From positions 1-13,300 of the forward strand of contig JAOUFI010000058.1 of the NCBI GenBank assembly GCA_029858305.1: DNA of 13,300 nt. The letters run 5' to 3'. This DNA is from Candidatus Thorarchaeota archaeon (GTDB taxonomy: Archaea; Asgardarchaeota; Thorarchaeia; Thorarchaeales; Thorarchaeaceae). Below are positions 1-13,300 of this stretch, one piece after another. The stretch's first letter is position 1, and every line of letters begins with the position of its first letter. Under the pieces are notes generated by a model. That model made no database searches, was not told the DNA's origin, and worked only from the letters and a program-made list of their open reading frames with translations. A program made the translations under genes and the position numbers.

Positions 1-367
1 AGAACAGGTCTCCCTTGGTGACCCGTGGGAGGAACTCTGCCCTTGCCTCAGGTGTACCATACTTGTCAAAGATAAACGCCCATGATGCCTCGACCAGGTA
101 CATGACCGGCAGTGCAATAGAGAGGTCTGCCTTTGCCAGCTCCTCGGCGGCTATACATGCCATGGTCCAGGAGAGGCCCGCACCACCGTACTCCTCAGAG
201 ACCGTTGGAGCCCAGAGCATCTGGTCGGCCATCTTTTTAATAAGATCACGAGGGATCTCGTGAGTTTTCTCATCATATTCTTTCCAGACTGGAGCGACGT
301 ACTTCTGAGCGAAGTCGTGCACAGCCTCGCGGAACATCTTTTCTTCATCCGACTCTTCAAAATGCAT
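1..367 (-). CDS. Acyl-CoA dehydrogenase family protein, N-terminal part (runs off the window's left edge)
   Basis: Not in the ORF track; translated by hand from ATG at 367: MHFEESDEEKMFREAVHDFAQKYVAPVWKEYDEKTHEIPRDLIKKMADQMLWAPTVSEEYGGAGLSWTMACIAAEELAKADLSIALPV...IFDKYGTPEARAEFLPRVTKG. Has the typical ACAD N-terminal motifs (EEYGGAG, EELA, YGT..R..LP...G). RBS-like GAGGT upstream (rc of 376-380). Confidence 0.93.
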   Translation of the reverse strand, partial: MHFEESDEEKMFREAVHDFAQKYVAPVWKEYDEKTHEIPRDLIKKMADQMLWAPTVSEEYGGAGLSWTMACIAAEELAKADLSIALPVMYLVEASWAFIFDKYGTPEARAEFLPRVTKGDLF

Positions 368-423
368 AGTAAACTACCTCTTGTTTGCTTGAGTCTTGCC
401 TGCGGGCGGGGTTGGAAAGCCCC

Positions 424-449
424 CTGCTTATAGTTCCTTCGTATGAGGC
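424..449 (+). repeat. Intergenic direct repeat, copy 1 (CTGCTTATAGTTCCTTCGTATGAGGC)
   Basis: 25/26 identical to the copy at 1509-1534; lies between divergent genes. Confidence 0.9.
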
Positions 450-557
450 GTCTAGTTCCTTCTTTGCAAATGAGAAATGTTCCTTGCAGCATTTCATAAA
501 CAGTCCACTGAACAAGTTAAATAGCTCTCATATACGACTGCCAATCGGTGAATCAAG

Positions 558-1496
558 ATGAGAGTGCTCGTTCTTGGTGGTACTGGTTTTCTTGGTTCTA
601 GAATCGTTACAAGATTGACATCACGTGGTCATGATGTTACTATACTCACCCGACGATCTGAAGCGGCAGAGTACTTCGGTAGCAGGGGCATCGAAACAGT
701 AGTAGGAGACCTCATGAAGCCCGAGGCGTTCATAGGCAATCTGAGTCCACAGGACTGTGTAGTTTTTGTTGCTATGCCTCTCGAGTTCGGTAGAATATCG
801 AAGAATAAGTTTGCTCAGATCAAAGAGAGGACTACCAAGTTCGTGTCGACTGCTCTTGCCATCGGGAAGAGACTCGGATGCCCGACCATACTGACTCTTG
901 GCACTGCGTACAGTACTAAGGCGGGGGAGGTAGCTGATGAGTCTTGGCCACTTTTCAGGACGGGTCTTACGAAGGCTGGCGAAGAGGCGGACGTGCTTAT
1001 TGCTAAGGCAAAGAAGGACGGACAACCACTCATCATAATGCTCCCAGGTCAGATCTATGGGCCGGGTGGCCAGTTCCTCAAAATGTATGAAATGATGAAG
1101 AATGGACGCTCAGGCGTCTTCGGTAGAGGTGACAACCACATCCCGAGGGTACATGTCGATGACTGTGCTCAGGCCTTTGTGCTTGCCATAGAGAAACAGC
1201 CCGTGGGTGAATCGTTCATCATAGCTGACGATACTCCGTGTACCACGCGAGAATTCACAGAGCGCATGGCGGAATGTATGGGACTGCCAAAACCTAGGAC
1301 TGTTCCAATTTTCATGGCTCGAATCATCCTTGGTGGTCTTCTTCTGAGCATTATGCAGATGGACTGCGTGGTGACTAACGAGAAGGCTAAAAGAGAGCTT
1401 GGGTGGGAGCTGGAGTACCCCTCTTATCAAGAGGGTCTCAAGGCCACAATCGAGAATCTAAGTGAAGGCACAGTCCTAGACCAGTCCGTACCATGA
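558..1496 (+). CDS. NAD(P)-dependent epimerase/dehydratase family protein (extended/atypical SDR)
   Basis: N-terminal Rossmann motif VLVLGGTGFLG, PGQIYGPG, VHVDDCA and C-terminal NEKAKRELGW..YPSY.EGL; RBS GGTGA at 547-551. Confidence 0.9.
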   Translation: MRVLVLGGTGFLGSRIVTRLTSRGHDVTILTRRSEAAEYFGSRGIETVVGDLMKPEAFIGNLSPQDCVVFVAMPLEFGRISKNKFAQIKERTTKFVSTALAIGKRLGCPTILTLGTAYSTKAGEVADESWPLFRTGLTKAGEEADVLIAKAKKDGQPLIIMLPGQIYGPGGQFLKMYEMMKNGRSGVFGRGDNHIPRVHVDDCAQAFVLAIEKQPVGESFIIADDTPCTTREFTERMAECMGLPKPRTVPIFMARIILGGLLLSIMQMDCVVTNEKAKRELGWELEYPSYQEGLKATIENLSEGTVLDQSVP

Positions 1497-1508
1497 AAGA
1501 CAAGTGCT

Positions 1509-1534
1509 CTGCTTATAGTTCCTTCATATGAGGC
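1509..1534 (+). repeat. Intergenic direct repeat, copy 2 (CTGCTTATAGTTCCTTCATATGAGGC)
   Basis: 25/26 identical to copy 1; lies between convergent genes, 12 bp after the SDR stop codon. Confidence 0.9.
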
Positions 1535-1580
1535 TCTGTCTGCTACTAAGACTAGGCTGATGAGATGAATAGGGACATTA

Positions 1581-2240
1581 TCATGGGTCAGGACCTTCAT
1601 GAATGATTTTCAGAGTCAGGTTCTGGAACCGCTTTTTGAAACCACTTCCCCTTGGAATTCCGACTAGTACGACTTGAGAATCAATCGATTTTGTATACAG
1701 AGCGAGAAGGATATATTTCGAGAGGACAGGAATCGAATAGGCAAGAAAATAGCCAGCCATCATAAAGAAGCCAAAGTCGCTCAGGAAACGGCTGGTGTAG
1801 AATCCATTGATACTCAGGTCTAGTAAGGAGATAATATTGAGTGGCAGTAGAGGAAGTACCCACCATATAAGAAGAGTAGTATACATTCTCGTACTGAGTT
1901 CAGCCTCTCCCTCTTTCTTCACGACATCAAGTTTCGTCGTTACAAAACGAGATAGATACAGACCAATCATCATCCCAGTAATGCAGGAAGTCAAGACCAC
2001 CAATCGTGATAAGTCAGAACCTAGTAGTGCCAAGATGCTTTGATCGATTGGTGAAGATGCCCCCCTAAGATAGTTGTATGCACCGATAAGCCAAGGTAAC
2101 GTACCAAGAACGAGAACACTCATGAAACAACATATTACTGGGAAAGATACAATGATGATGCCGGGATAGCGGACTCTTTCCATTTCAATCGCTTTTTGTT
2201 CCGAATCATCTATACCGAGCACCTCTGCGCCACTTCCCAC
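1581..2240 (-). CDS. Hypothetical integral membrane protein (about 4 TM helices)
   Basis: 219-aa ORF with four long hydrophobic segments; ends with tandem stops TGA TAA; fills the interval between repeat copies 2 and 3. The start is uncertain (GTG 2240 or ATG 2183). Confidence 0.75.
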   Translation of the reverse strand: MGSGAEVLGIDDSEQKAIEMERVRYPGIIIVSFPVICCFMSVLVLGTLPWLIGAYNYLRGASSPIDQSILALLGSDLSRLVVLTSCITGMMIGLYLSRFVTTKLDVVKKEGEAELSTRMYTTLLIWWVLPLLPLNIISLLDLSINGFYTSRFLSDFGFFMMAGYFLAYSIPVLSKYILLALYTKSIDSQVVLVGIPRGSGFKKRFQNLTLKIIHEGPDP

Positions 2241-2290
2241 CTGAAGGCTTTGCTAAAACTTGCCTTTGAGTATAAATTAACGGCATAACC

Positions 2291-2316
2291 TTGCATATAG
2301 TTCCTTCGTATTGTGC
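2291..2316 (+). repeat. Intergenic direct repeat, copy 3 (TTGCATATAGTTCCTTCGTATTGTGC)
   Basis: Shares TGC.TATAGTTCCTTCGTAT with copy 1; lies between divergent genes. Confidence 0.85.
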
Positions 2317-2430
2317 GGATAAGTCCTTGAATCTTGTCTGGAATGCTAAGACCAAAACTCTCTTGACTCCAAAAACCGTACAATATCATAGCGTGGCGTA
2401 ACATCTTTATCATGAGGGAGGATAGAGCTG

Positions 2431-3159
2431 GTGTTCAAAAGAATCATCAGTAAAATAACCGCTGCCGCTTTATCGGTTAGCCTATATCTGCCAGTCGTTA
2501 CAGGCACAGTGACCGGTATGGGCTGGGTAGTAGGCGGCTTGTATTTTTCATGGAGCCTCCTCCAGTACATAGTTCCTTATTCAAATAGATGGTATGACTT
2601 TGTGTATGTGTTCAATCGTCGTCCTGAGGGGCTGGAGATTGGCATAGTTGTTGCATTTCGATTCTCGCAGGTTCTTATGTTCTGCCTTGGACTATTTCTT
2701 CTCTGCTATGGGTTAGTCATTCTGGTTCGGGCACGAGTACACGAGGAAGGTCTAATCACACACGGTCCATACAGCTGGGTACGGCATCCTCAACACCTGG
2801 GAATCCTGCTCATGCTGTTCCTTCTGGCTTTTCCTCTTGAAACGAGTTACTCGACATTGCTCTATCCGGTAACCCGGCCTGGTGATCTGATATCTATGTG
2901 CTCGGTTCTATTCCTGCTCTTTTTAGTTGCTGATTTTGAGGATTACTGGTTGAGTAAAGAATACGGGGACTTTTATCTGCAATACCAGCAGAACACTCCC
3001 TTCATACTTCCAATTCGAATACAGCTTCCCAAATCAATGCACATTAACATGCTGAAACGTGGGCAGCCGCTTAGATATATACTGGCTACACTATTCTTCT
3101 GGGTTTTCTTGGTGCTGCTATCTTATCATTTCAGAATTGGCAGACCACCTATCTGGTAG
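2431..3159 (+). CDS. Isoprenylcysteine carboxyl methyltransferase / phospholipid methyltransferase-like membrane protein (ICMT/Ste14/PEMT superfamily)
   Basis: Signature LITHGPYSWVRHPQHLG and downstream ED..L...YG..Y..Y...TPFILP; several TM helices; GAGGGAGGA upstream of the GTG start. Confidence 0.85.
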   Translation: MFKRIISKITAAALSVSLYLPVVTGTVTGMGWVVGGLYFSWSLLQYIVPYSNRWYDFVYVFNRRPEGLEIGIVVAFRFSQVLMFCLGLFLLCYGLVILVRARVHEEGLITHGPYSWVRHPQHLGILLMLFLLAFPLETSYSTLLYPVTRPGDLISMCSVLFLLFLVADFEDYWLSKEYGDFYLQYQQNTPFILPIRIQLPKSMHINMLKRGQPLRYILATLFFWVFLVLLSYHFRIGRPPIW

Positions 3160-3208
3160 AGCTGCAGCAGATTCATTCCCGCATCTCAGAACATGTCTAG
3201 AACATGCC

Positions 3209-3228
3209 CTGCGTATAGTTCCTTCATA
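3209..3228 (+). repeat. Intergenic direct repeat, copy 4 (CTGCGTATAGTTCCTTCATA)
   Basis: 19/20 identical to the first 20 bp of copy 2; lies between convergent genes. Confidence 0.85.
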
Positions 3229-3259
3229 GTAGATATTCTATTTATCATCAGCAAATCAA

Positions 3260-4096
3260 TCAATCTGGAAACTTGACTTGAATTATTTTTATGATTCTAA
3301 GCCGATGATTGAGCCTCATCAAAAGTCGTGTCTTGCGTTTCCACTTTGGATTGTGGGGAAGGCGCGAGAATATGGGAAACTCGTCAATCACTTGGAGTGT
3401 AGGGTCCCATCTGGCGATTTGCTCAGCCGCGTTATCTAAGCTAAAAGAGAATGTGACACCCTTTGTGCCAGTCTTTCTCAATCGCCTATTCCATATTCTT
3501 GTTCCAAGGCTAGAAGGCATGTCAAAGATTAGTTCACCACTTGGAAAACGGGATGCCATTTTACGCACGAGAGTGACGACCTCTTCTTCTTTGAAATAAT
3601 TGAGCAGCCCTCCAATAAGGAAAAAGATGCCTCTCTCTTTTGAGAAATCTACTAATTCAAACCAGGTCTGGTCAAACACTGATTTTGGAATGACCTTGGA
3701 TCGTGAAGTCTCGGGAATATTCTCTTTGCGAATGGCTATCGCATCTGGGAGATCTAGGTCATACCAGAGGATCTGTCCGTTGTCCACACGGGAAAAGGTA
3801 GTATCAAGGCCGCATCCAATATTGACGATTGTTGTACGTGGATGTACTTCGATGTATTTCCGAATTGCATCGTCAAAAGAACGTGCTCTAAATACAAGAA
3901 GCAATCCGATAAACTCATCAACAAGCTTCTTCGTTAGGGCCAAATCTTCAGGCGGGGCACGATGTCTCTCTTCTAGGATGTTATAGATTCGAATTGCCTC
4001 TGTGTCATTTAACAACTCTGGATACTTCTGACTTAGAGTAGCACGTGCCCAAAATGGTCCGCCCATCGTTTGTTCAAGTGAATATTCCGGAGACAT
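3260..4096 (-). CDS. Class I SAM-dependent methyltransferase, leucine carboxyl methyltransferase (LCM)/TcmP-like O-methyltransferase family
   Basis: Motifs RARSFDD, IVNIGCGLDT...R, WYDLDLPDAIAIRK and GGLLNYF. The start is probably ATG 4096, preceded by GGTGAGG, rather than 4108. Confidence 0.9.
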   Translation of the reverse strand: MSPEYSLEQTMGGPFWARATLSQKYPELLNDTEAIRIYNILEERHRAPPEDLALTKKLVDEFIGLLLVFRARSFDDAIRKYIEVHPRTTIVNIGCGLDTTFSRVDNGQILWYDLDLPDAIAIRKENIPETSRSKVIPKSVFDQTWFELVDFSKERGIFFLIGGLLNYFKEEEVVTLVRKMASRFPSGELIFDMPSSLGTRIWNRRLRKTGTKGVTFSFSLDNAAEQIARWDPTLQVIDEFPIFSRLPHNPKWKRKTRLLMRLNHRLRIIKIIQVKFPD

Positions 4097-4585
4097 TATC
4101 CTCACCAATATTCCAGATAATGAATATGTCTTATCAGTTACTTGAACATTACAACTGATTTGGATGAATCCTCTTATAGATGATAAGGCTTCTTGTACTA
4201 AATGGCCTCTCTCAGGATTAATGGTATCGAAACATGCAATATGCAGTTAGTTTCTTTTCTTATCCCTCGTAACTATTATCCACTAGAACTTGTGATAAGA
4301 TTTAATTGACTGGTTTGCGAACTATTTCGGATGGGTGTGCAAATATTACTACGCCATATACGAGCGAATGGCTTCTTGAGGAAGAACGAAGAAGCCGCAC
4401 ATCAGTACCGTGGGGTATAGGCTCAAGTAGATATCTGTCAATTATTGTTGTCAGAAGATGATTTTGTTAAAAAATACATTTAAACAAATACATATAGTTC
4501 AATCCATATTTAGAAATTTCACATTTTAAATAATCGATGAAATGTGTCATAGCATGAAAGTGGTATCGAAGAAATGCTACTCTAG

Positions 4586-4650
4586 AAAAAGAAGGAGGAG
4601 AAATTCGAAATATTAATGCGTCCAGACCAGCTGCATAGCGAGTCTGGACG
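4586..4650 (-). terminator. Putative terminator/3' structure: 9-bp hairpin plus pyrimidine tract
   Basis: CGTCCAGAC (4619-4627) and GTCTGGACG (4642-4650) form a perfect inverted repeat about 20 nt after the stops of the 4674-5414 gene, followed on the - strand by TTTCTCCTCCTTCTTTTT. Confidence 0.5.
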
Positions 4651-4673
4651 TTCGTTTAATTCTTTACTGATTA

Positions 4674-5414
4674 TCATGCACTTGCGCGAATTGATCTTCC
4701 CTGAAAGATAGAACCAACTAGAATGAGGAACCATCCGAAGGTATGGAAGCTTACTATTGTCAAGGCTATGCTATTGGTCAATGTAACTCCTAGAGATAGA
4801 AGCTGTCCAAAACTCACTATCATCTCTCCAAAGAACCAGCTTAGGAGTCCCACAAGAGTAAGCCAAATCCATTTCACTCGTGGAGTCCCACGGATCCTAT
4901 CTTGTCTTGTGTATTTGACTGAAGCATAGAGTGGTATCAAAACCATGTATAAGATAGCCAAAACTATCCAGGAAATTAACCAAAGTTGTGTGTATGCCCC
5001 ATTGCCAAACGCGAGGAACATGAAGATTTCCACGACGATTGGTCCAATGAGGAAGACAATATACGCCCACTTTCTTACACTAAAGAAGTCCGGATAGGCC
5101 CACATTACAACATATATTGCGATAAAGAACAGAAACAGATACCTCATACCAAAGTTTAGGTATTGTCCCCACAGCGTCCAATCTGATAAAGGACCAACAG
5201 TGCTTATGATTCCCATCCTAGCCAGCATTACCACAACTACTGAAACAAGCAAGAATATGAAACCAAAGAACTGCAAGAGTGAGAGATTTCTACTTCTTCC
5301 TGAACCTGAAAAGGCACCCCACAAACTTAACAGGATAATAAGAAGCACGATAATAAAACCGAGAGCACCAATGGTGTTCACATAGAGTTCATATTGCATT
5401 AAAATATCCTCCAC
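4674..5414 (-). CDS. Hypothetical 7-TM integral membrane protein
   Basis: 246 aa with seven hydrophobic segments by eye, short loops and a basic loop between TM5 and TM6; ends TGA TAA. Confidence 0.8.
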   Translation of the reverse strand: MEDILMQYELYVNTIGALGFIIVLLIILLSLWGAFSGSGRSRNLSLLQFFGFIFLLVSVVVVMLARMGIISTVGPLSDWTLWGQYLNFGMRYLFLFFIAIYVVMWAYPDFFSVRKWAYIVFLIGPIVVEIFMFLAFGNGAYTQLWLISWIVLAILYMVLIPLYASVKYTRQDRIRGTPRVKWIWLTLVGLLSWFFGEMIVSFGQLLSLGVTLTNSIALTIVSFHTFGWFLILVGSIFQGRSIRASA

Positions 5415-5764
5415 TTGAACATAATGCGTTTCCGAACTTCTATTTAAGATGCATCATTCAGTAATTATTGCAAGTATTATGCTTTCAAAATGAAATTTGG
5501 ATGTTTCACATTCTAACTAGGTCTTGTTCCTAGATTACAGAACACAACATGAGCTATTCGGACTACAATGGTGCACATGCTTCGGTGTCAAATCGGTTCC
5601 TTGGCAAAAGATTGTGTTCCAATAACATCATCGTTCGAAGATGATTAAATCAATGGGCTAGAAATACAAGAGATTGCTAGGAATCGCATCAGAAAAGAAG
5701 AAGTGGAGCCCAATCCAACTTGGGCTCCATGTTGCCGCCGCATACAGCGTTGTTATAGCTTGTA

Positions 5765-5956
5765 TCATACTGCCATCGTGCTTTTGCTGCGTGAACACAT
5801 TATCGCACCTGCATCCACGAAGACCAAAATCCCTAGCAAAATCGCCAGAAATGGGTCGATCATATATGTGTTGAAATAGTTGCATGCTATTCCGCCGATA
5901 ACAACGAAGATTGCTATCATTAGTACTGTAATCACTATCTTGTCCCTTGTTTGCAT
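5765..5956 (-). CDS. Small 2-TM membrane protein
   Basis: 63 aa with two hydrophobic helices; very strong RBS AGGAGGTGA (rc of 5962-5970) upstream of the ATG. Confidence 0.75.
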   Translation of the reverse strand: MQTRDKIVITVLMIAIFVVIGGIACNYFNTYMIDPFLAILLGILVFVDAGAIMCSRSKSTMAV

Positions 5957-6219
5957 TCAGAATCACCTCCTGTACATTTGTTGGCTGTATCCATGACCGT
6001 AATTTCACTTCTCCTCAAGTGTACCCTCAGGACTCCACAACTGCCCTTCACTTCGAGTATTTCAGGTTCCACAAACGTGGCATGTTGCAGTGTACCAAGA
6101 GTTCCTTCTATTAGGACGCCTTCATGCACGTCAGTTGAGAGGGTTGAGAGCTTGTGCTTGTCATAATTGAGTTCGATTGAGAAGATGCGTTCGCCATTTT
6201 CGTCTTCTTGAAAGTTCAT
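5935..6219 (-). CDS. Small soluble hypothetical protein (beta-rich; resembles a conserved archaeal family from memory)
   Basis: 94 aa with pattern FSIEL...VLIEGTLG.L..A.FVE..ILEVKGS.GVLRV.L...EI; overlaps the next gene by 22 nt; purine-rich RBS upstream. Confidence 0.75.
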   Translation of the reverse strand: MNFQEDENGERIFSIELNYDKHKLSTLSTDVHEGVLIEGTLGTLQHATFVEPEILEVKGSCGVLRVHLRRSEITVMDTANKCTGGDSECKQGTR

Positions 6220-6313
6220 CTCTTGACCCTCAAGACAGATATGGGTGAGGACATGTGATAATCTTTAATTAGCAGGGGTACGAAAAAATTCGGACGGGTG
6301 CGAAAATCCTACC

Positions 6314-7087
6314 ATGTTAAGCCATGAGGAAGCCGATAGAATCTCGAAGATTCTCTTTGAATTTGCCAGCGACAGAAGATTGAGCATTCTTTTCGAGGTA
6401 CAACAACAGAACCTCAAGATGCAGCGAATAGCTAAAGTCCTAGATATGAACGTCACAGAAACTTTCAGACACTTGCAGAGACTCACCGAATCGAAACTTG
6501 TTGAGAAGAGAGTTGACGGCACCTATGCAATAACGCCTCTTGGTACTCTGGCAATTGGACTTCTCACAAATCTAGATTTCATTCTGAAAAATGGAAACTA
6601 CTTCCTGGAACACGATCTTTCTTGCCTTCCCTATGAGTTTGTGAACAGGCTGGGCGAGTTGTCAGATGCTGAGTTTTGTGGAGATACGGTGACCAATTTT
6701 AACAGAGTCAGAAAAATAGTGTACGAAGCAGAGGAATACATCTGGGCAATGGCGGAGCAAGTTGAGTCAAGCCACGTCCAAGCAACAAATGAGAAAGTGT
6801 CCAAAGGACTACAGTTTCGATTCATAATGCAGAACGATCTGACAAAGACATTTGAAGCGACTCCGGAAGTTGAGCACTTGAAAGAAAGAAGGACGCTCGA
6901 ACGAATCTGCGTCACGTTTTTGATGAATGAGAAAGAATCATGTGTCAATTTTCGAAGAAGGAACGGAGAAATGGACTACATTGGATTTTTTGGAAAAGAC
7001 GAAAGATTCCGCAAGTGGACCATAGACCTGTTCATGCACTACTGGGATAGAGCTGAAAGGTGGTATCCAAGCATTCGAAGTCCTTAG
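6314..7087 (+). CDS. Archaeal winged-helix (ArsR-like) transcriptional regulator with C-terminal DUF1724-like domain
   Basis: N-terminal ASDRRLSIL...IAKVLDMNVTETFRHLQRLTESKLVEK..DGTYAITPLG; middle YFLEHDLSCLP.EF..RLGEL; C-terminal F.KW..DLF.HYW. Divergent from the two small genes. Confidence 0.85.
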   Translation: MLSHEEADRISKILFEFASDRRLSILFEVQQQNLKMQRIAKVLDMNVTETFRHLQRLTESKLVEKRVDGTYAITPLGTLAIGLLTNLDFILKNGNYFLEHDLSCLPYEFVNRLGELSDAEFCGDTVTNFNRVRKIVYEAEEYIWAMAEQVESSHVQATNEKVSKGLQFRFIMQNDLTKTFEATPEVEHLKERRTLERICVTFLMNEKESCVNFRRRNGEMDYIGFFGKDERFRKWTIDLFMHYWDRAERWYPSIRSP

Positions 7088-7290
7088 AGGTCATTTTGTG
7101 TTACTCTCGTATAATTCAGCGGATTTAGATTAATAACATTGGAGAAGAGTTCAATTCGAGACAGGCGGCACAAGCTGGGGCACTATTGCTAAGGCTGCAG
7201 TAGGAATATTGAACATGGCTTTTGTCTGAAGAGATATTGGCAGGGTCGCTGGGTCAGTTCCTCGTGATATTTTCCTAGTTACTCACCTTC

Positions 7291-10200
7291 TCACGACGAT
7301 TTTCGCGGCAACCTGCCCTCTCTGGCCAAGATTATGATAATCACTGCAAATGCTACGCTTGCCACCGAAACGCCGGCAGCCGCCATCATTGGGATATCTA
7401 GAGTTCCTGCGACTCCAGTTGTGGTTGTTGTACTAGTTGCTTGGAGGACAGTCACGAGGACCGAATCGCTCATCACATGATTTCCTGCGTCAAACACAAG
7501 CAGAAGATACGAGTAGAGACCTGAGTCAAGGTCGTCCACAGAAACAACTATCTGTTCCGAGCTACTGTTCCAAAGCCCCTGCATAATGACAACACCATTC
7601 CTAACTACTTCATACGAACGTGGATTGTCATCGAATGCTTGCCACGTGATTGAGTTGCCTACCTCTCCTTCTGTGTAAGTCACATCATCTGGATGATTGA
7701 TTGATGGGACGGTCACATCGAGGACGACAATCACGATATCAGCCGAGCAGTAGTGACCATAACTGTCATACGCTCTAACCTCGAGCAGAGTTTCGCCGCA
7801 AGGAAGTGAAACATTGTTAGTCACGACTCCCTCATCATCTACACTGAAATTGGCTGTATCGCTGACCCAATAGTGGTCGATGCCTGATGCGTCATAGGCT
7901 TGAATTAGAAGTATGCCCCTCTCTCCATAGTTGACGTACACTGTAGCTGGCACTGCTACCCAAGTGGGGGCTTGTGTGTCAATCACCTCGATGCGAATAA
8001 TTCCTGTCAGGATCTGGCCAAGAGTATCGTTTACAGAGACTGTGATATGGTAGACACCTACAGGCAGGAGAACATTCGACGTCACGATGCCCGCAGAGCT
8101 AATTGAGAATCGACCGGTGTCATTCAGCCACCATGTGTCAAGACCCGAGTAGTCTGTTGCATTGAGGTCATAGTAGAACGCTTCGCCCGCCTCAACCAGC
8201 TGGTCGGTAAGCGCATGAGTCCAATATGGCCCGTCAGTGTCTAGGACTGTCAATGTGAATGTGGCAGAACAATAGTGACCATAGTGGTCAAGGCCCCTCA
8301 CTTCAAGCGCATATTTTCCAGCTGGAATCTCAGTGATGTTTGTCAGCACACCGCTCCCGTCTATGGTCACAATGGCTGTGTTGTTCACCCAATATCCAGC
8401 AATTTCACTGTAACCAACAGCCTCCAGATCCATATAGAGGGTTTCGTAGTATTGAATTGTTACATTACTCGGGGCTATCGACCACGTGATATAGGGCCCC
8501 TTCATGGGCAGAATTAACGGGCGTGAATCCTCTGAGCCAGTAGTCCCTGGTATAGAATACGGTGTATCACCAAAGCCATCGTAGTCATTGTCGAGACCGC
8601 CATAGTCAGCGTAATAGTTCTCACTTATGGTGTTCTGAATACCACTGTCCTGCGCATTATTTGTGTTGTTGAAGTCGTTCCAAGACACAGTCACATTGCT
8701 GGACTGACTACCCAGTATCAGACCCCACGTATTACCGGTGAGAGTGTTGTTTCTGACGACACTGAACTCTGCTGAGAGCAGGTTCAGGGCATTTTCGGTG
8801 CCTGTTAGGAGATTCTGTTCAATTGTCAAATCAGTTGAATCCTCGACATGAATAGCCTCTGAATACTGTATGAATGAATTGTTTGAAAAGCTACAGAGGC
8901 TGCTGTTCTGAATATAGACTCCGTACAAGCCAAGAGGGAATGTGTTGTTGGCTATCACTCCATTTGTAACATTCCAGAGATCTATCCCGGTCCCATCTAC
9001 AGTGTCGTCGTAATCAATAATTGTGCAGTTGCGGATGGTGAAGTTTGCTCTTGTGTTTTGAATGATGATACCAGTGGGTTTACTCCAGTAGGTCAAAATA
9101 TACAAGCCTTCTATAACGTAAGGCTCCTCAATAGTGCCTTCTCCAGGCCATCCTTGCGATACGAAGTCGTCATCACTAAGGATCTCTATTGTGAAGTCAA
9201 CGATTTGACAGAGTATCGTGTGCCGGTTGTCTTCGGTTCTACTCTCTCCAGAAACCTCATCGATAGCCACTGTGAAATTATAGATGCCACTTCGACTCGG
9301 TGTCCATGCATAGTCGTAAGTATAGAGAGTACTCCTATTCAGAATAGGGAAGAGGTCGACGAACACTTGCTGGCCATTCAGATACAATCTCATAATCACA
9401 TAGTTCTCTAAAGATGTACCCGTGTTCAGTATGGAAAGCGTGACGGGCCTTTCATAGCCGGGGAGATCGGGTGTCCATGTGTGAACATGTGACCACACAT
9501 CATGTTCCTGGGTAGCCTGAGCCAGCCACATGAAGGAATTCACACCTAAGCCAAGATTCACAGCACCGTAGGCGTTGGAAACCATATCATTGTCGCTCAT
9601 ACAGACTATCTTGCCTAATCCAATCTGCGAGGCGGCCAGCAAGTGATGACCACCACTGTATTCCATCAGACCTATTGCAGGCCACGTTATATTGAGTCCA
9701 GCACGAGCATCCAAAGCTTGGAAAGACTCGAGTCCTTTTGTGACCGGATGATAAATCTGGTACGGACTGGCCATGCCCACAGACGCGACAATCCACTCAA
9801 TACCAGCAAAGTCAGTGAGGGTGTTGAAGATACTCTCGTCAAGGTCTGCCATCACAAGCAGCCCACCACCTGCAAGAACGAAGTCATGAATTGCGTCGGT
9901 CTCATTTGTGGAATAAGTCAGGGTTGGCTGGGCAATCACAAGTACCGTGTATCCCTGTAGCGAAGAAGCATTGATTGGTCCAGAAGAGAGTGTATCTGTG
10001 ACAAAACCAATCGATCCAATCTCTGCAATGAGGCTGGAGAATTGAGATGGTGCTTGATTGCCATGGATCATGTCCCAGAGGACGTATGTTTCATCACCAG
10101 CGCCGATAGGATTAGACTGGAGGTCGTTTCTTGTGGGCGTTCCTCCTGAAAATGGTCCTGGCTCTGAAATCGATGTATATGATCCATCGCTAGGCACCGA

Positions 10201-10338
10201 AATAGAAACAGGAAGAAGCAGAGCAATACAGATTGATACAAGAACCGGAACAATCCGAACGAGGTCAGTTTTCCGCACGTATTGATGTCTGTTCTTCTTC
10301 AACCTACAGATTTTACGTTCTCCTGCATTACTCACCAT
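7291..10338 (-). CDS. Large membrane-anchored cell-surface glycoprotein: signal/TM, GIFT/DUF4350-like domain, CARDB-like domain, right-handed beta-helix (NosD-like), four Ig-like repeats, Thr linker, C-terminal TM
   Basis: Hydrophobic N-terminal segment; VLWDMIHG...YTVLVIAQP...AIHDFVLAGGGLLVMAD; Asn-ladder repeats with GWPGEGTIEEPYVIEG and NYYADYGGLDNDYDGFGDTPY; ~88-aa repeats ending V.DT..P; TSTTTTT followed by a TM helix and basic tail; many N-x-S/T sequons. Confidence 0.88.
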   Translation of the reverse strand: MVSNAGERKICRLKKNRHQYVRKTDLVRIVPVLVSICIALLLPVSISVPSDGSYTSISEPGPFSGGTPTRNDLQSNPIGAGDETYVLWDMIHGNQAPSQFSSLIAEIGSIGFVTDTLSSGPINASSLQGYTVLVIAQPTLTYSTNETDAIHDFVLAGGGLLVMADLDESIFNTLTDFAGIEWIVASVGMASPYQIYHPVTKGLESFQALDARAGLNITWPAIGLMEYSGGHHLLAASQIGLGKIVCMSDNDMVSNAYGAVNLGLGVNSFMWLAQATQEHDVWSHVHTWTPDLPGYERPVTLSILNTGTSLENYVIMRLYLNGQQVFVDLFPILNRSTLYTYDYAWTPSRSGIYNFTVAIDEVSGESRTEDNRHTILCQIVDFTIEILSDDDFVSQGWPGEGTIEEPYVIEGLYILTYWSKPTGIIIQNTRANFTIRNCTIIDYDDTVDGTGIDLWNVTNGVIANNTFPLGLYGVYIQNSSLCSFSNNSFIQYSEAIHVEDSTDLTIEQNLLTGTENALNLLSAEFSVVRNNTLTGNTWGLILGSQSSNVTVSWNDFNNTNNAQDSGIQNTISENYYADYGGLDNDYDGFGDTPYSIPGTTGSEDSRPLILPMKGPYITWSIAPSNVTIQYYETLYMDLEAVGYSEIAGYWVNNTAIVTIDGSGVLTNITEIPAGKYALEVRGLDHYGHYCSATFTLTVLDTDGPYWTHALTDQLVEAGEAFYYDLNATDYSGLDTWWLNDTGRFSISSAGIVTSNVLLPVGVYHITVSVNDTLGQILTGIIRIEVIDTQAPTWVAVPATVYVNYGERGILLIQAYDASGIDHYWVSDTANFSVDDEGVVTNNVSLPCGETLLEVRAYDSYGHYCSADIVIVVLDVTVPSINHPDDVTYTEGEVGNSITWQAFDDNPRSYEVVRNGVVIMQGLWNSSSEQIVVSVDDLDSGLYSYLLLVFDAGNHVMSDSVLVTVLQATSTTTTTGVAGTLDIPMMAAAGVSVASVAFAVIIIILAREGRLPRKSS

Positions 10339-10485
10339 TCCACGCGAGCCCCTTTCTTTTGTATCTATTATGCCCTTTGACTTAAGCTTTGCTTTCGGAA
10401 ACCAACTGTTTGCGGAACCTGCTCTCAGGCTCCGAATACGATATTAGCAAGGAAATGATACTATTTGCAAGGTTAGGTGCTGAGT

Positions 10486-10650
10486 TTGGATGAGATAGAC
10501 AAAGGAATCCTCTTTGGACTGATGTTCAACTGCAGAACACCATATGTTCGAGCGTATATTCGGGGGAGATTTTCCTCACCAATCCTCGTATTGTTTAGGT
10601 ATCTCATCAGTTACTTGAGTGCAAGATATGGAGAATTAATCTTGACATAA
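10486..10650 (+). pseudogene. Truncated Lrp/AsnC-type HTH relic
   Basis: Translates (M/L)DEIDKGILFGLMFNCRTPY then unrelated sequence to TAA at 10648-10650. The first 20 codons (10486-10545) match LDHIDKQILLMLVGNCRTPY of the downstream regulator. AGGTG RBS-like at 10475-10479. Confidence 0.7.
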
Positions 10651-10756
10651 GGATTCTTGTGCTCACTCGCTCGAAAGGTTGGTGGAATGAGTAATTTGCA
10701 AATCCCATATTCGCCAATCAATAGATTCATGAAGTTGTTTTCTGATAATTCTTTTG

Positions 10757-11671
10757 ATGACCAAACTAGACCATATTGACAAGCAGATACTTCTCATGCT
10801 AGTTGGCAATTGCAGGACGCCATATCGAGAGATTGCCAAATCTCTAGGAATGTCCGCTACTGCCATCAAGAGCAGAGTCGATGACTTGGTCGTTAATGGA
10901 ATTGTGACAGAATTCACCATTGAGTTCTCGCCAGCAATGATTGGTTCTGAATACATGATGGCCTGGTTGAAAACAGACACCACAGAAGATAGAGCGCAAT
11001 TCATTTCAAAGATTGCTACGAATAGAGGCGTGAGACAGGTTGTTCCCCTTTATGGAGGGGACTACTTAATTATTGCAGAGTATGCAAGCTCGCTCGAGCT
11101 GGCCACTCTTGCTGAAGCTCTCAAGAGCAACCCTCATGTCAGTTTCACTGAAATTCATACTCTGCTCGTTCAACGAGGCAAGAAAACGAACTTGACGAAT
11201 CTTCAGCTAAGGGTCCTCAAAGCACTCCTTACGGATGCCAGGATGTTGATTACTGACATCGCAAGAGATACTGGTCTGACAGTGCGCCTTGTCCGAAAGA
11301 CATTACGAGAACTAGAAGAGAGCGAGGCAATTAGATTCTCACTCAGATGGCGTCTTAATGTTAGTGATAGGGTTACCTTTATTCTAAAATTAAAATGGGA
11401 CCCAAAGCGTGCTTCAAGGAATGAAATCATGGATTTGCTGCAAAAGAACTACAAGGACGAACTCTGGGATATCCTTGCATCTGCAAGTGACCCAATTCTG
11501 ATTGGTATTGCTATTGTTGACAACCTGAATCATGTTGACATGATTACAACCGAGATTAGATCACATCCTGCGATGCTATATTCTGAAGCCATCATGTACA
11601 GACCGCCGCTTAATTGCAAGAGCCTAAGGAGACTCACTCTTGAGGAAGCCGTTCAGGCTGCAGGAGTCTAG
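10757..11671 (+). CDS. Tandem (internally duplicated) Lrp/AsnC-family transcriptional regulator
   Basis: Two HTH-plus-RAM-like units: LDHIDKQIL..L..NCRTPYREIAKSLGMSATAIKSRVDDL...GIV and LTNLQLRVLKALLTDARM..TDIARDTGLTVRLVRKTLREL. The start is ATG 10757 or TTG 10754. Confidence 0.9.
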   Translation: MTKLDHIDKQILLMLVGNCRTPYREIAKSLGMSATAIKSRVDDLVVNGIVTEFTIEFSPAMIGSEYMMAWLKTDTTEDRAQFISKIATNRGVRQVVPLYGGDYLIIAEYASSLELATLAEALKSNPHVSFTEIHTLLVQRGKKTNLTNLQLRVLKALLTDARMLITDIARDTGLTVRLVRKTLRELEESEAIRFSLRWRLNVSDRVTFILKLKWDPKRASRNEIMDLLQKNYKDELWDILASASDPILIGIAIVDNLNHVDMITTEIRSHPAMLYSEAIMYRPPLNCKSLRRLTLEEAVQAAGV

Positions 11672-11809
11672 ATAAACGCAATCAAGTCACTATGTAAAGC
11701 GCGTTCTTTACAAATTGACACTTTTCGAGCCTCTTCTGATATTCTTATCAACTTCATACCTGACACAGCTAGATATCCTGTTTTGCAGATGATTTTCTTG
11801 TGAATCACT

Positions 11810-12043
11810 ATGACAGAATCACGAGAAAAACCGAAGGAACGTGAAGACCACACTGTGGTTGAGATTCATGGGCTGAGTAATCTACAGTTACCAATGAACT
11901 CGTTCTTCGCATTCCTAGGTCCAAACGGTGCTGTCAGGAGGATTAAGCTATTCTTTGATCTAACTCAACACACATCGGGCGGCGAACTATTCTTGGTCAT
12001 GAACTCACAACGGAAAACAAATGAATATTGGTTTAGGAGGTAA
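11810..12043 (+). pseudogene. Degenerate ABC ATPase N-terminal fragment
   Basis: VVEIHGLS-NLQLPMNSFFAFLGPNGA-VRRIKLFFDLTQHTSGG aligns with the N-terminus of ABC ATPases, but the Walker A GK[ST] residues and about 10 upstream residues are missing and the rest of the domain is absent. Confidence 0.65.
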
Positions 12044-12047
12044 AAAA

Positions 12048-12992
12048 TTGGATGAAGTGATTATTAAAGGTTTAACGAAGAGATTTGACGACTTAACAGC
12101 CGTCGATCATATTGAGCTGAATGTCCCTGAAGGCTCGATCTACGGGCTATTAGGACCAAATGGCGCGGGTAAGTCCACATCAATTCGGCTTCTCTGCACG
12201 CTTCTCACACCTAGTGAAGGCACAGCATGCATAGGGGGCTTTGATATCATCGAATCACCAGTAAGTGTTCGAGAGATAACTGGTGTAATGCCAGAAGAGA
12301 GCAATCATACTCTCTATTCCACAATGTCCACCTATGAGAATTTGGAGTACTTTGGGAAGCTCTATGGAATTCCTGATGCAGAGATACCTGAAAGGATCGA
12401 GGAGCTACTGAATTTCATGGGGCTTTGGGAACGAAAGGATGATCCTGCTGGAGAGTTGAGCACAGGCAATCGCCAGCGTCTTGCGTTATGTCGTGCTTTG
12501 CTTCACCGACCAAAGGTGCTCTTGTTGGATGAGCCGACATCTGCATTAGATCCCATTGCCGCTAAAAAGGTTCGAGAACTTATCCTTAGTCTTGCTAAGA
12601 AGTATAGACAAACTTTCTTCATCAACTCACACAATCTAGCGGAGGTTCAGAGAATCTGCGACAGGATTGCAATCATCGATAAGGGCCGGATTTTACTTAG
12701 TGGCAAGACAAAAGAGCTTCAGTCTAAATTGCAGGCTAGCCAGAATTTTACGATTCGTGTTACTGATGATCTAGAAAAGGCTCTATCTATTGCCAAATCC
12801 ATGTCATTCGTGACATCTGCTGAGAAAGAAGTCGACTCTCTCCAGGTTACCATTGAGGATCCAATAGGCAATAACTCAACTTTGATGCAATCGCTACTGT
12901 CTCAGGGAGTCAGAATTATCGAATTTGCGGAAGAAGCGGCGACACTAGAAGACCTGTACCTTGATGTCATAAAAGGAGGTGTCAACCAATGA
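12048..12992 (+). CDS. ABC-2 type exporter ATP-binding protein (DrrA/NatA-like) with C-terminal accessory domain
   Basis: Walker A GPNGAGKST, signature LSTGNRQR, Walker B LLLDEPT, switch NSH, C-terminal TLEDLYL. AGGAGGT at 12035-12041 favours the in-frame TTG 12048 as start over ATG 12021. Confidence 0.95.
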   Translation: MDEVIIKGLTKRFDDLTAVDHIELNVPEGSIYGLLGPNGAGKSTSIRLLCTLLTPSEGTACIGGFDIIESPVSVREITGVMPEESNHTLYSTMSTYENLEYFGKLYGIPDAEIPERIEELLNFMGLWERKDDPAGELSTGNRQRLALCRALLHRPKVLLLDEPTSALDPIAAKKVRELILSLAKKYRQTFFINSHNLAEVQRICDRIAIIDKGRILLSGKTKELQSKLQASQNFTIRVTDDLEKALSIAKSMSFVTSAEKEVDSLQVTIEDPIGNNSTLMQSLLSQGVRIIEFAEEAATLEDLYLDVIKGGVNQ

Positions 12993-13300
12993 CTCTAAGG
13001 AAATCGATGCTCGTTGCCAGAGCTGACCTACGAATGGCAATGAAAGTAAAGATGGTCAAGTATAGTCTTGTTATTATGGCTGCGATGGCACCTGTCATGT
13101 TAATTGGACTTGTCTTGCTGTTTGCACTATCAGCGCCTGCAATTGTAGTGGCTACCATAGCAATGCTAGATCCAATCATGTCGCCCATGATTGGTATTAT
13201 GACCATCGTTCCAGCGACTCTAATCTCTGCTAATGCTCTTGTAGGTGAAAGAGAACAGAACACTCTTGAGCCACTTCTATGCACACCCTTAACAAACCGC
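12989..13300 (+). CDS. ABC-2 type exporter permease, N-terminal part (runs off the window's right edge)
   Basis: Not in the ORF track. ATGA overlap with the ATPase stop and RBS AGGAGGTG at 12974-12981. Translates MTLRKSMLVARADLRMAMK...TM...SANALVGEREQNTLEPLLCTPLTNR, containing the ABC-2 permease GERE..TLE.LL..P motif. Confidence 0.92.
   Translation, partial: MTLRKSMLVARADLRMAMKVKMVKYSLVIMAAMAPVMLIGLVLLFALSAPAIVVATIAMLDPIMSPMIGIMTIVPATLISANALVGEREQNTLEPLLCTPLTNR

Follow-up and report, generated by a model that had tools for sequence, protein, structure and literature searches.

A candidate integron-like gene-cassette array beside an acyl-CoA dehydrogenase gene in Thorarchaeota

Why does a short sequence recur, always on one strand, between unrelated genes beside an acyl-CoA dehydrogenase (ACAD) gene of an archaeon? 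The question arises from contig C60 of G000, a 3.04-Mb metagenome-assembled genome (MAG) of Thorarchaeota (205 contigs, 89% complete), whose 13,300 nucleotides are referred to here as the window. Four direct repeats in the window separate single genes, and the array abuts the ACAD gene, as the initial annotation had noticed. We consider it probable, though by no means secure, that the locus is an integron-like chromosomal cassette array, kept by site-specific recombination at a promoter-derived site of ∼40-45 bp with a recombinase acting in trans. All data used here are MAGs or metagenome contigs.

The window contains four same-strand copies of TGCNTATAGTTCCTTCRTA, at 425, 1510, 2292 and 3210. 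The 12-mer TATAGTTCCTTC is exact at 429, 1514, 2296 and 3214, all on the + strand, with a one-mismatch copy at 451; 0.06 exact matches would be expected by chance, and none of 200 shuffles gave at least five matches. The four direct copies with a 12-bp core described in the initial annotation are therefore real, while the length of ∼20-26 bp that it gave for the site is too short: the copies align over 40 nt (spacings 1085, 782 and 918), and the conserved part extends over ∼40-45 bp (gGAGAGTGCCCTGCTTATAGTTCCTTCGTATGAGGCTCTGTCTGC). Throughout the 205 contigs of G000, a 22-mer search allowing up to four mismatches and an nhmmer profile built from 40 sites match these four places only, so this is not a motif that sits at a fixed distance from start codons across the genome.

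The comparison between relatives covered 36 loci, which were oriented by the site and whose open reading frames (ORFs) were clustered. Their 80 distinct 49-nt site sequences yield a ∼45-bp consensus, GGAGAGTGCCCTGCTTATAGTTCCTTCGTATGAGGCTCTGTCTGC. All sites in every array lie on one strand, with up to seven sites per array. At internal sites the right half is better conserved than the left. The central four nucleotides vary between genomes while the arms are kept: TTCC is the most frequent centre, and ATAA, ATAC, GTAC and ATGG occur elsewhere, ATAA being found at three of the four sites in G023 and also in G016 and G010. A varying centre between kept arms is the pattern that would be expected of protein-bound arms around a region of exchange. 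In core-type sites of tyrosine recombinases, two inverted binding arms enclose an asymmetric overlap of 6-8 bp where exchange takes place; here the arms, CTTATAG and GTATGAG, are only partially symmetric. Of the six arrays that are anchored at ACAD and have three sites or more, five have their lowest-scoring site at the distal end, which is suggestive only, because the profile is biased towards first (ACAD-proximal) sites.

Of the 24 congeners searched initially, 11 contain the motif, in each case as a cluster on a single contig and a single strand, and several further genera of the family have the site too; the clustering expected from the initial annotation is thus found both in G000 and in its relatives. 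A wider search returned 21 of 87 genomes, a count inflated by single one-mismatch matches that arise by chance according to control patterns; the lone one-mismatch pattern match in the one-contig genome G052, unconfirmed by the profile, was rejected. An exact-match scan of one genome per prokaryotic species found 19 stretches. Twelve belong to Thorarchaeota, Promethearchaeota or uncultured-archaeon MAGs, including both stretches with three matches, and the other seven are single matches in a Woesearchaeota MAG and bacterial MAGs, which we take as chance. A metagenome scan added 13 contigs, several of them duplicating MAG contigs. ACAD adjoins the first site on the left in 23 of the 36 loci, a count that includes three near-identical locus pairs, and the genes to its right differ between loci. 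Orthologues of ACAD (79-93% amino acid identity) were found in 47 of the 85 family genomes, with one at 62% in the order's other family; a full-length orthologue has all three ACAD domains.

What lies between the sites differs from one relative to the next. To the right of ACAD the window carries an SDR-family gene, a four-transmembrane (4-TM) protein gene, an ICMT-like gene and an LCM-type methyltransferase gene, one per interval in mixed orientation, ORF and Pfam analysis here agreeing with the initial annotation. These genes are not fixed: MAG locus L009 and the independent metagenome contig L050 hold SDR, GNAT, ICMT-like and another gene; L011 has a 548-aa protein followed by the 4-TM gene; in L017 the 4-TM gene follows ACAD directly; and in L020 and L064 an NhaA antiporter gene does so. 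The SDR cassette recurs in other contexts in L009, L014, L037 and L055, the ICMT-like cassette is common to the window and L009/L050 (74% nucleotide identity), and an LCM homologue directly follows a site in L075. Among 47 site-to-site intervals, counting ORFs of at least 75 aa, 36 contain one ORF, seven two, one three, two four and one none; the median interval is 918 bp and units span about 0.4-4 kb. Products include SDR proteins, ICMT/PEMT-like and LCM methyltransferases, GNAT, NhaA, an Rce1-like protease, a PF10118 hydrolase, an arginase-family protein, flavodoxin, an HxlR-type regulator, a small ATP-cone protein, DinB and an acyl-CoA synthetase with a MaoC dehydratase, which are unrelated accessory types. 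Single-gene cassettes lie on the + strand in 20 cases and on the - strand in 16. In both orientations they have ∼130 bp (median) before the start codon and ∼65-85 bp after the stop codon, and each thus seems to carry its own expression signals.

Homology between loci often begins and ends at the sites. Each cassette starts, on its left, with the strongly conserved right half of a site (TTCCTTCGTATGAGGCTCTGTCTGC) and finishes, on its right, with a left half, which varies more (GGAGAGTGCCCTGCTTATAG). Between the window and L009, homology stops at 1533 (site 2) and resumes at 2289 (site 3), so exactly cassette 2 has been exchanged. In a three-way alignment of the window, L011 and L017, the 4-TM cassette is homologous from site to site, with unrelated flanks and three different left neighbours, and in every pair of species ACAD homology ends 10-30 bp beyond the site centre. 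Over all comparisons, 433 of 1092 internal ends of blastn high-scoring segment pairs fall within 25 bp of a site centre, a zone making up 1.4% of all sequence and 8.9% of intergenic sequence; because the locus pairs are related, this enrichment is descriptive and neither an independent test nor a probability. That breaks in synteny would coincide with the motif, as the initial annotation had anticipated, is borne out in these comparisons between loci.

Moreover, cassettes and anchor gene have different histories. The 4-TM cassettes of L011 and L017 are 94.0% identical and the next cassettes 93.8%, whereas the ACAD genes are just 74.5% identical. The window ACAD is nearer to that of L017 (87.3%) than to that of L011 (76.7%), yet the window 4-TM cassette is equally far from the two (78.9% and 79.2%). 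These identities disagree, so cassette history does not follow anchor history; the sharing between L011 and L017 probably reflects recent transfer.

Empty states also exist, as had been predicted. In L067, and in L088/L097 from another genus, ACAD is followed by a single site and then by a conserved backbone; in L090, from a further genus, ACAD is followed by backbone, but a site is undetected by the profile. The backbone comprises genes for a methyltransferase, 114-aa and 251-aa proteins of no family, a HAD hydrolase, a TPR protein and an MBL-fold protein. By their sequences, one of the two proteins of no family looks secreted and membrane-anchored and the other small and soluble; neither looks like a DNA-acting enzyme. 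The backbone is distal to the variable region in L015, L052, L066 and L075, and in G000 it is on another contig (C152:25550-30615), placing the whole 13.3-kb window inside the variable region. Recognisable sites in the window lie at the four ACAD-proximal junctions only. Empty sites and distal site loss would fit insertion beside ACAD and decay of the older, distal junctions. In some loci the sole or final site is followed by core operons, which are leuA/leuCD/leuB-like in L015 and belong to the shikimate pathway in L065; the backbone adjoining the hot spot is different between lineages.

The core of the site coincides with a conserved promoter-like element of ACAD. In family loci with a located start codon, CTTATAG-N4-TTC starts 50-67 nt before that codon, most often 58-62 nt, and in the window CTTATAG is 61 nt from the start codon. 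Read on the ACAD strand, CGAA-NNNN-CTATAAG is a purine-rich stretch followed by a TATA-like box, which from general knowledge of archaeal promoters we take to be a transcription factor B recognition element and TATA box (BRE/TATA). The position of the box would give a leader of ∼35 nt, and GAGGT precedes the ACAD start codon. This promoter-like element is also present in genera without arrays, where the right arm GTATGAGGCTCTG is absent. Since the ACAD promoters of genera without arrays lack the right arm GTATGAGGCTCTGTCTGC, that arm is specific to the cassettes and not a part of the promoter. The promoter-like distance to a gene start is found for the ACAD-proximal copy only. Across the family, then, the core of the site is a conserved promoter-like element of ACAD, a relationship that the initial annotation missed and that makes the ACAD-proximal copy the likely chromosomal target. 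We conclude that the chromosomal target is probably the ACAD core promoter, and that the cassettes would carry a matching core plus a right arm of their own, much as integrative elements bring with them a copy of their target tRNA end. No Rfam family matches positions 1-6000 of the window at E≤1 and there is no tRNA in the window; a known RNA family or tRNA fragment as the integration target was accordingly rejected.

These patterns can be assembled into a mechanism. The attachment point would be a ∼40-45-bp double-stranded site overlapping the ACAD core promoter, and a cassette would be self-contained, in most cases a single gene that may face either way and has its own ∼130 bp of upstream sequence. 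Cassettes would enter and leave as circles through conservative site-specific recombination, with exchange inside or beside the short asymmetric centre (T)TCCTTC. New cassettes would be inserted preferentially at the ACAD-proximal site, older ones being displaced distally, where their sites degenerate. A recombinase acting in trans would be needed, most likely of the tyrosine type and encoded on an unbinned mobile element. What the comparisons show directly is the repeated site, the changing content, the breaks at the sites, the empty states and the discord between cassette and anchor similarity; circular intermediates, the point of exchange, how the array grows and which kind of enzyme acts are inferred. 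A bolder version, which we hold tentatively and regard as possible rather than probable, is that of an undescribed Thorarchaeota gene-capture platform, analogous to integrons but mechanistically unrelated: a recombinase outside the tested families or on an episome would insert circular single-gene cassettes into the ACAD BRE/TATA, the promoter would be rebuilt each time, and cassettes would be transferred between species and genera of the family.

Junctions in other assemblies bear on the point of exchange. In L037 a hybrid site is found, in which the SDR cassette keeps ...CCTTCGTATGAGGCG... (the CCTTCGTATGAGG portion) and the left half is replaced by unrelated sequence. The sequencing runs were compared as Logan contigs, which are assembled contigs and not reads. 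Those of run X1, the run that covers the window best (90%), bridge window sites 2, 3 and 4 with 0 to 6 differences; one contig of this run tracks the window through TTCCTTC (3225) before passing into a canonical right half and other DNA, and two diverge from the window after 449. In contigs of two other runs, other left halves are joined to the SDR cassette at 434/435, and in a run X2 contig an ACAD-type left arm is joined directly to the LCM cassette at 3209. The L037 site and the Logan junctions are compatible with an exchange in (T)TCCTTC; the limits of the exchange point are soft, because the site itself is conserved.

Several results weigh against site-specific recombination. No recombinase has been found. 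In G000, searches for eleven recombinase and transposase families gave a topoisomerase IB as their sole match, with none to PF00589 (Phage_integrase), PF13495 (Phage_int_SAM_4), PF16795 (Phage_integr_3), PF00239 (Resolvase), PF01797 (Y1_Tnp), PF07282 (TnpB zinc-ribbon), PF01548 (IS110-type), PF00665 (rve), PF01609 (DDE_Tnp_1) or PF01867 (Cas1). PF00589 matches occur in just eight of 28 genomes of the genus and in three of its 12 array-bearing ones, and the tyrosine-recombinase loci of congeners have no site beside them. Pfam scans of ∼60 array, flank and backbone proteins revealed no recombinase, and IMG/VR viral contigs contain no exact match for two site 18-mers (left half plus centre, and centre plus right half). 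Nor did the Logan contigs contain deletion joints or circular junctions. The inverted-repeat symmetry of the site is weak (∼5/8 inner-arm positions, from a consensus read by eye), and conservation of the first site needs no recombination function, because its core is a promoter-like element. Several blocks have no sites at all: positions 5693-7121 of the window correspond to a site-flanked two-gene cassette in L010, with ends +34 and -6 from the site centres, and bear no sites in the window. In L013 (G023:C181, oriented 11750-11884), a 135-bp copy of the ACAD 5' end including the start codon precedes an internal site; this fragment and site are followed by the NhaA cassette that adjoins ACAD in L020 and L064, so the block of ACAD edge plus cassette was imported or duplicated and not every event runs from site to site. 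The missing recombinase is weak evidence of absence, because MAGs lose mobile elements. Of the integron-like capture system with a recombinase encoded elsewhere that the initial annotation had proposed, the array comparisons thus support the capture, and the recombinase has not been found.

The main rival is a regulatory repeat, whereby each spacer happens to contain either a duplicate of the ACAD BRE/TATA region or the operator of some local factor, and homologous recombination and horizontal transfer make use of the identical stretches of 20-45 bp without any dedicated recombinase. Such a repeat would account for the core CTTATAG-N4-TTC upstream of ACAD throughout the family, array-free genera included, and it is helped by the lack of a recombinase gene in G000, by mixed central variants within one array and by the ACAD duplicate of L013, which looks homology-driven or illegitimate. 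However, the copies keep one strand although the cassette genes face both ways, each ∼130 bp from the nearest gene start; no copies lie beyond this locus in G000, and the constant strand with mixed gene orientation is likewise not that of a regulon motif. The right arm GTATGAGGCTCTGTCTGC, missing from the ACAD promoters of array-free genera, also speaks against a purely regulatory element, and homologous recombination leaves unexplained how the repeat came to flank unrelated incoming genes. We judge this explanation unlikely, while taking it seriously. An artefact, in which assemblers joined fragments at a short shared k-mer or the repeat arose by chance, might be suspected from data consisting of MAGs and metagenomes with contigs that often end at or near the array. 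It is scarcely credible given that the order ACAD-SDR-GNAT-ICMT is found in both MAG L009 and the independent contig L050 (8054 bp aligned at ≥98.5% identity), that run X1 contigs bridge sites 2-4, and that the 12-mer has the low chance expectation given above.

Two further alternatives retain recombination and assign it to known systems. The sites could be targets of a Xer/dif-type recombinase, with the cassettes as recombinase-less elements comparable to integrative mobile elements exploiting Xer (IMEX) or to pdif modules. Short double-stranded sites with imperfect inverted arms around an asymmetric centre, and cassettes that encode no recombinase, are in keeping with this, and direct site orientation would match tandem IMEX integration. 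Yet G000 has no PF00589 or PF13495 match, the former is found in the minority of genus genomes noted above, the site is tied to the ACAD promoter and not to a terminus-like position, and pdif sites alternate in orientation where these do not; we regard this origin as very improbable. A classical integron cassette array without an integrase (CALIN) would likewise have one gene per interval and repeats conserved within the array, and integrons and CALINs have been reported as enriched in Asgard MAGs (PMC9668308). Here, however, 12 single-strand DNA folds (61 nt; eight sites, four of them on both strands) gave z values of -1.2 to +1.6 against shuffles. None of the 12 surpasses its shuffles, so an attC-like hairpin is absent; the 40-45 bp are conserved as sequence and not as structure, no RYYYAAC/GTTRRRY ends are read from the consensus, genes with their own upstream regions lie in both orientations, and no IntI is present. 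We give a CALIN almost no credence. The absence of a hairpin, the constant orientation and the lack of a Xer-type gene uphold the earlier exclusion of attC and pdif sites, and site-specific recombination in a promoter-anchored array remains the reading that we prefer.

Table 1. Features of the array and its surroundings in the 13,300-nt window.
Feature	Position	Strand	Evidence
Anchor gene, ACAD, 5' part, cut by contig start	2..367	-	Acyl-CoA_dh_N E=1.4e-30
Site 1, ACAD-proximal, attI/attB-like; overlaps presumed ACAD BRE/TATA on minus strand	413..453	+	profile 39.2 bits
Cassette 1, SDR / NAD-dependent epimerase-dehydratase family gene	558..1496	+	PF01370 E=4.9e-20
Site 2	1498..1538	+	profile 35.8 bits
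Cassette 2, 219-aa multi-pass membrane protein (4-TM)	1581..2240	-	no Pfam match
Site 3	2280..2320	+	profile 27.2 bits
Cassette 3, ICMT/PEMT-like membrane methyltransferase, weak	2431..3159	+	PF04140 E=3.6e-4, PF04191 E=7.8e-4, both under curated cut-offs
Site 4, deviant right half: ATAGTAG replaces GTATGAGG	3198..3238	+	profile 24.5 bits
Cassette 4, LCM-type methyltransferase; distal side without detectable site	3260..4108	-	PF04072 E=2.3e-9
Remaining variable region, no recognisable sites: helix-turn-helix (HTH) regulators, NosD/CARDB surface protein, ABC ATPase, others	4109..13300

Several further observations concern the window and its relatives. The leader of the SDR cassette, immediately after site 1, contains a core fragment twice more, at 451-462 (TCTAGTTCCTTC) and 478-487 (TGTTCCTTGC), and this stretch is partly kept in the SDR cassettes of L009 and L037; the extra fragments could be accessory binding sites or relics of tandem sites. 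An ∼80-bp repeat (4064-4145 and 10538-10618, 78-94% identity) covers the start of the LCM gene with its upstream sequence, and its second copy lies upstream of the NosD-like gene. That copy contains stop codons, on which ground gene duplication was rejected as the source of the repeat; it seems to be a vestige of a second LCM-type cassette that was deleted. The variable region encodes two winged-helix regulators, at 6314-7087 and 10754-11671, one of them HVO_A0261/FilR1-like and the other with AsnC-type HTH_24 and TrmB-like HTH domains. In many MAGs ACAD is at a contig end or within ∼200 bp of one (for example G022:C182, G057:C49, G008:C377, G056:C32, G091:C38 and G101:C10), which suggests that assemblies break there repeatedly because the neighbouring variable region is heterogeneous, being polymorphic within populations.

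The search for an enzyme gave other observations. The topoisomerase IB of G000 is of eukaryotic type (C188:20112-20837, L103; PF01028 E=2.7e-61, 687-aa frame), and among 14 control genomes PF01028 matches in Deinococcus only. The topoisomerase IB of poxviruses prefers (C/T)CCTT. Exchange of this type at the core TCCTT was rejected, since the pentamer is lost where the centre reads ATAA, ATAC or GTAC. A sequence common to two integrase loci, ATATAGATCCTTCA, lies inside unrelated ORFs and was taken as chance. No terminal inverted repeats were noted in the alignments of cassette boundaries, and no short-range inverted pair was found around a cassette of the window. A review credits most archaeal genomes with XerA (PMC8371274); a Xer-type dimer resolvase may be missing from the genus, or may be too divergent or unassembled.

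No known relatives of eukaryotes are closer than Asgard archaea, and their routes of gene acquisition are a matter of debate. If the bolder version above is true, no cassette system specific to Asgard archaea, and none with a promoter as its attachment site, would have preceded this one. The array, if real, would represent a second, independent route of modular gene acquisition. The short, sequence-specific site could be used to fish cassettes from sediments by polymerase chain reaction, and a plasmid with two sites would provide a concrete assay for a new recombinase.

How does the locus compare with known systems? In tandem accretion, integrase-less cis-mobilizable elements accumulate at an att site beside integrative and conjugative elements, separated by direct att repeats. 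The present arrays are alike in that direct repeats separate elements without an integrase of their own, which would rely on one in trans; they differ in their small units of 0.4-4 kb, mostly single genes, in the number of sites and in that no integrase element is seen in the arrays. Xer modules (IMEX at dif and pdif modules of Acinetobacter plasmids) share short two-arm sites with a centre and recombinase-less cargo, whereas here no Xer-type gene is detected, orientation does not alternate and the target is a promoter and not dif. Archaeal integrase elements of the SSV and pNOB8 types, which are sometimes integrated in tandem, resemble the array in a conserved chromosomal target duplicated at the element ends, but they encode an integrase, are several kb long and usually target tRNA genes (PMC8371274), whereas G000 is negative for PF16795 and PF00589. 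Tn7-family elements with fixed attachment sites have been described in Asgard archaea and likewise insert in one orientation beside a conserved housekeeping gene (bioRxiv 10.1101/2025.07.27.667033); the present locus differs in having no rve-type transposase, no multi-repeat ends and a single shared site between units. The literature searched offers no description resembling such arrays, supplementary lists, including the archaeal CALIN contigs of PMC9668308, being outside that search. Cassette-type capture has so far been reported for archaea only as the classical IntI/attC integron found with IntegronFinder (PMC9668308), a tool that the present locus would escape.

The likeness to integrons and CALINs goes further. 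Both have a fixed chromosomal platform, mostly single-gene accessory cassettes and related sites in one orientation; in both, close relatives differ in what the array contains, the sites of one genome are alike and distal sites are poorer. They differ in that the sites described here are conserved as ∼45 bp of double-stranded sequence without a single-strand hairpin, that no IntI is present, that genes face both ways with their own upstream regions, that the platform is the promoter of a housekeeping gene and not an integrase with attI and Pc, and that the host is an Asgard archaeon. attC sites are imperfect palindromes of ∼55-140 nt that fold as single strands and end in RYYYAAC/GTTRRRY, and the ORFs of integron cassettes are mostly co-oriented, promoterless and expressed from Pc. 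The variable array of single ORFs is found here, and IntI, attC and co-oriented promoterless ORFs are not; with three of these four features lacking, the locus is not a member of the integrons. Functionally, the closest known system is nevertheless the sedentary chromosomal integron.

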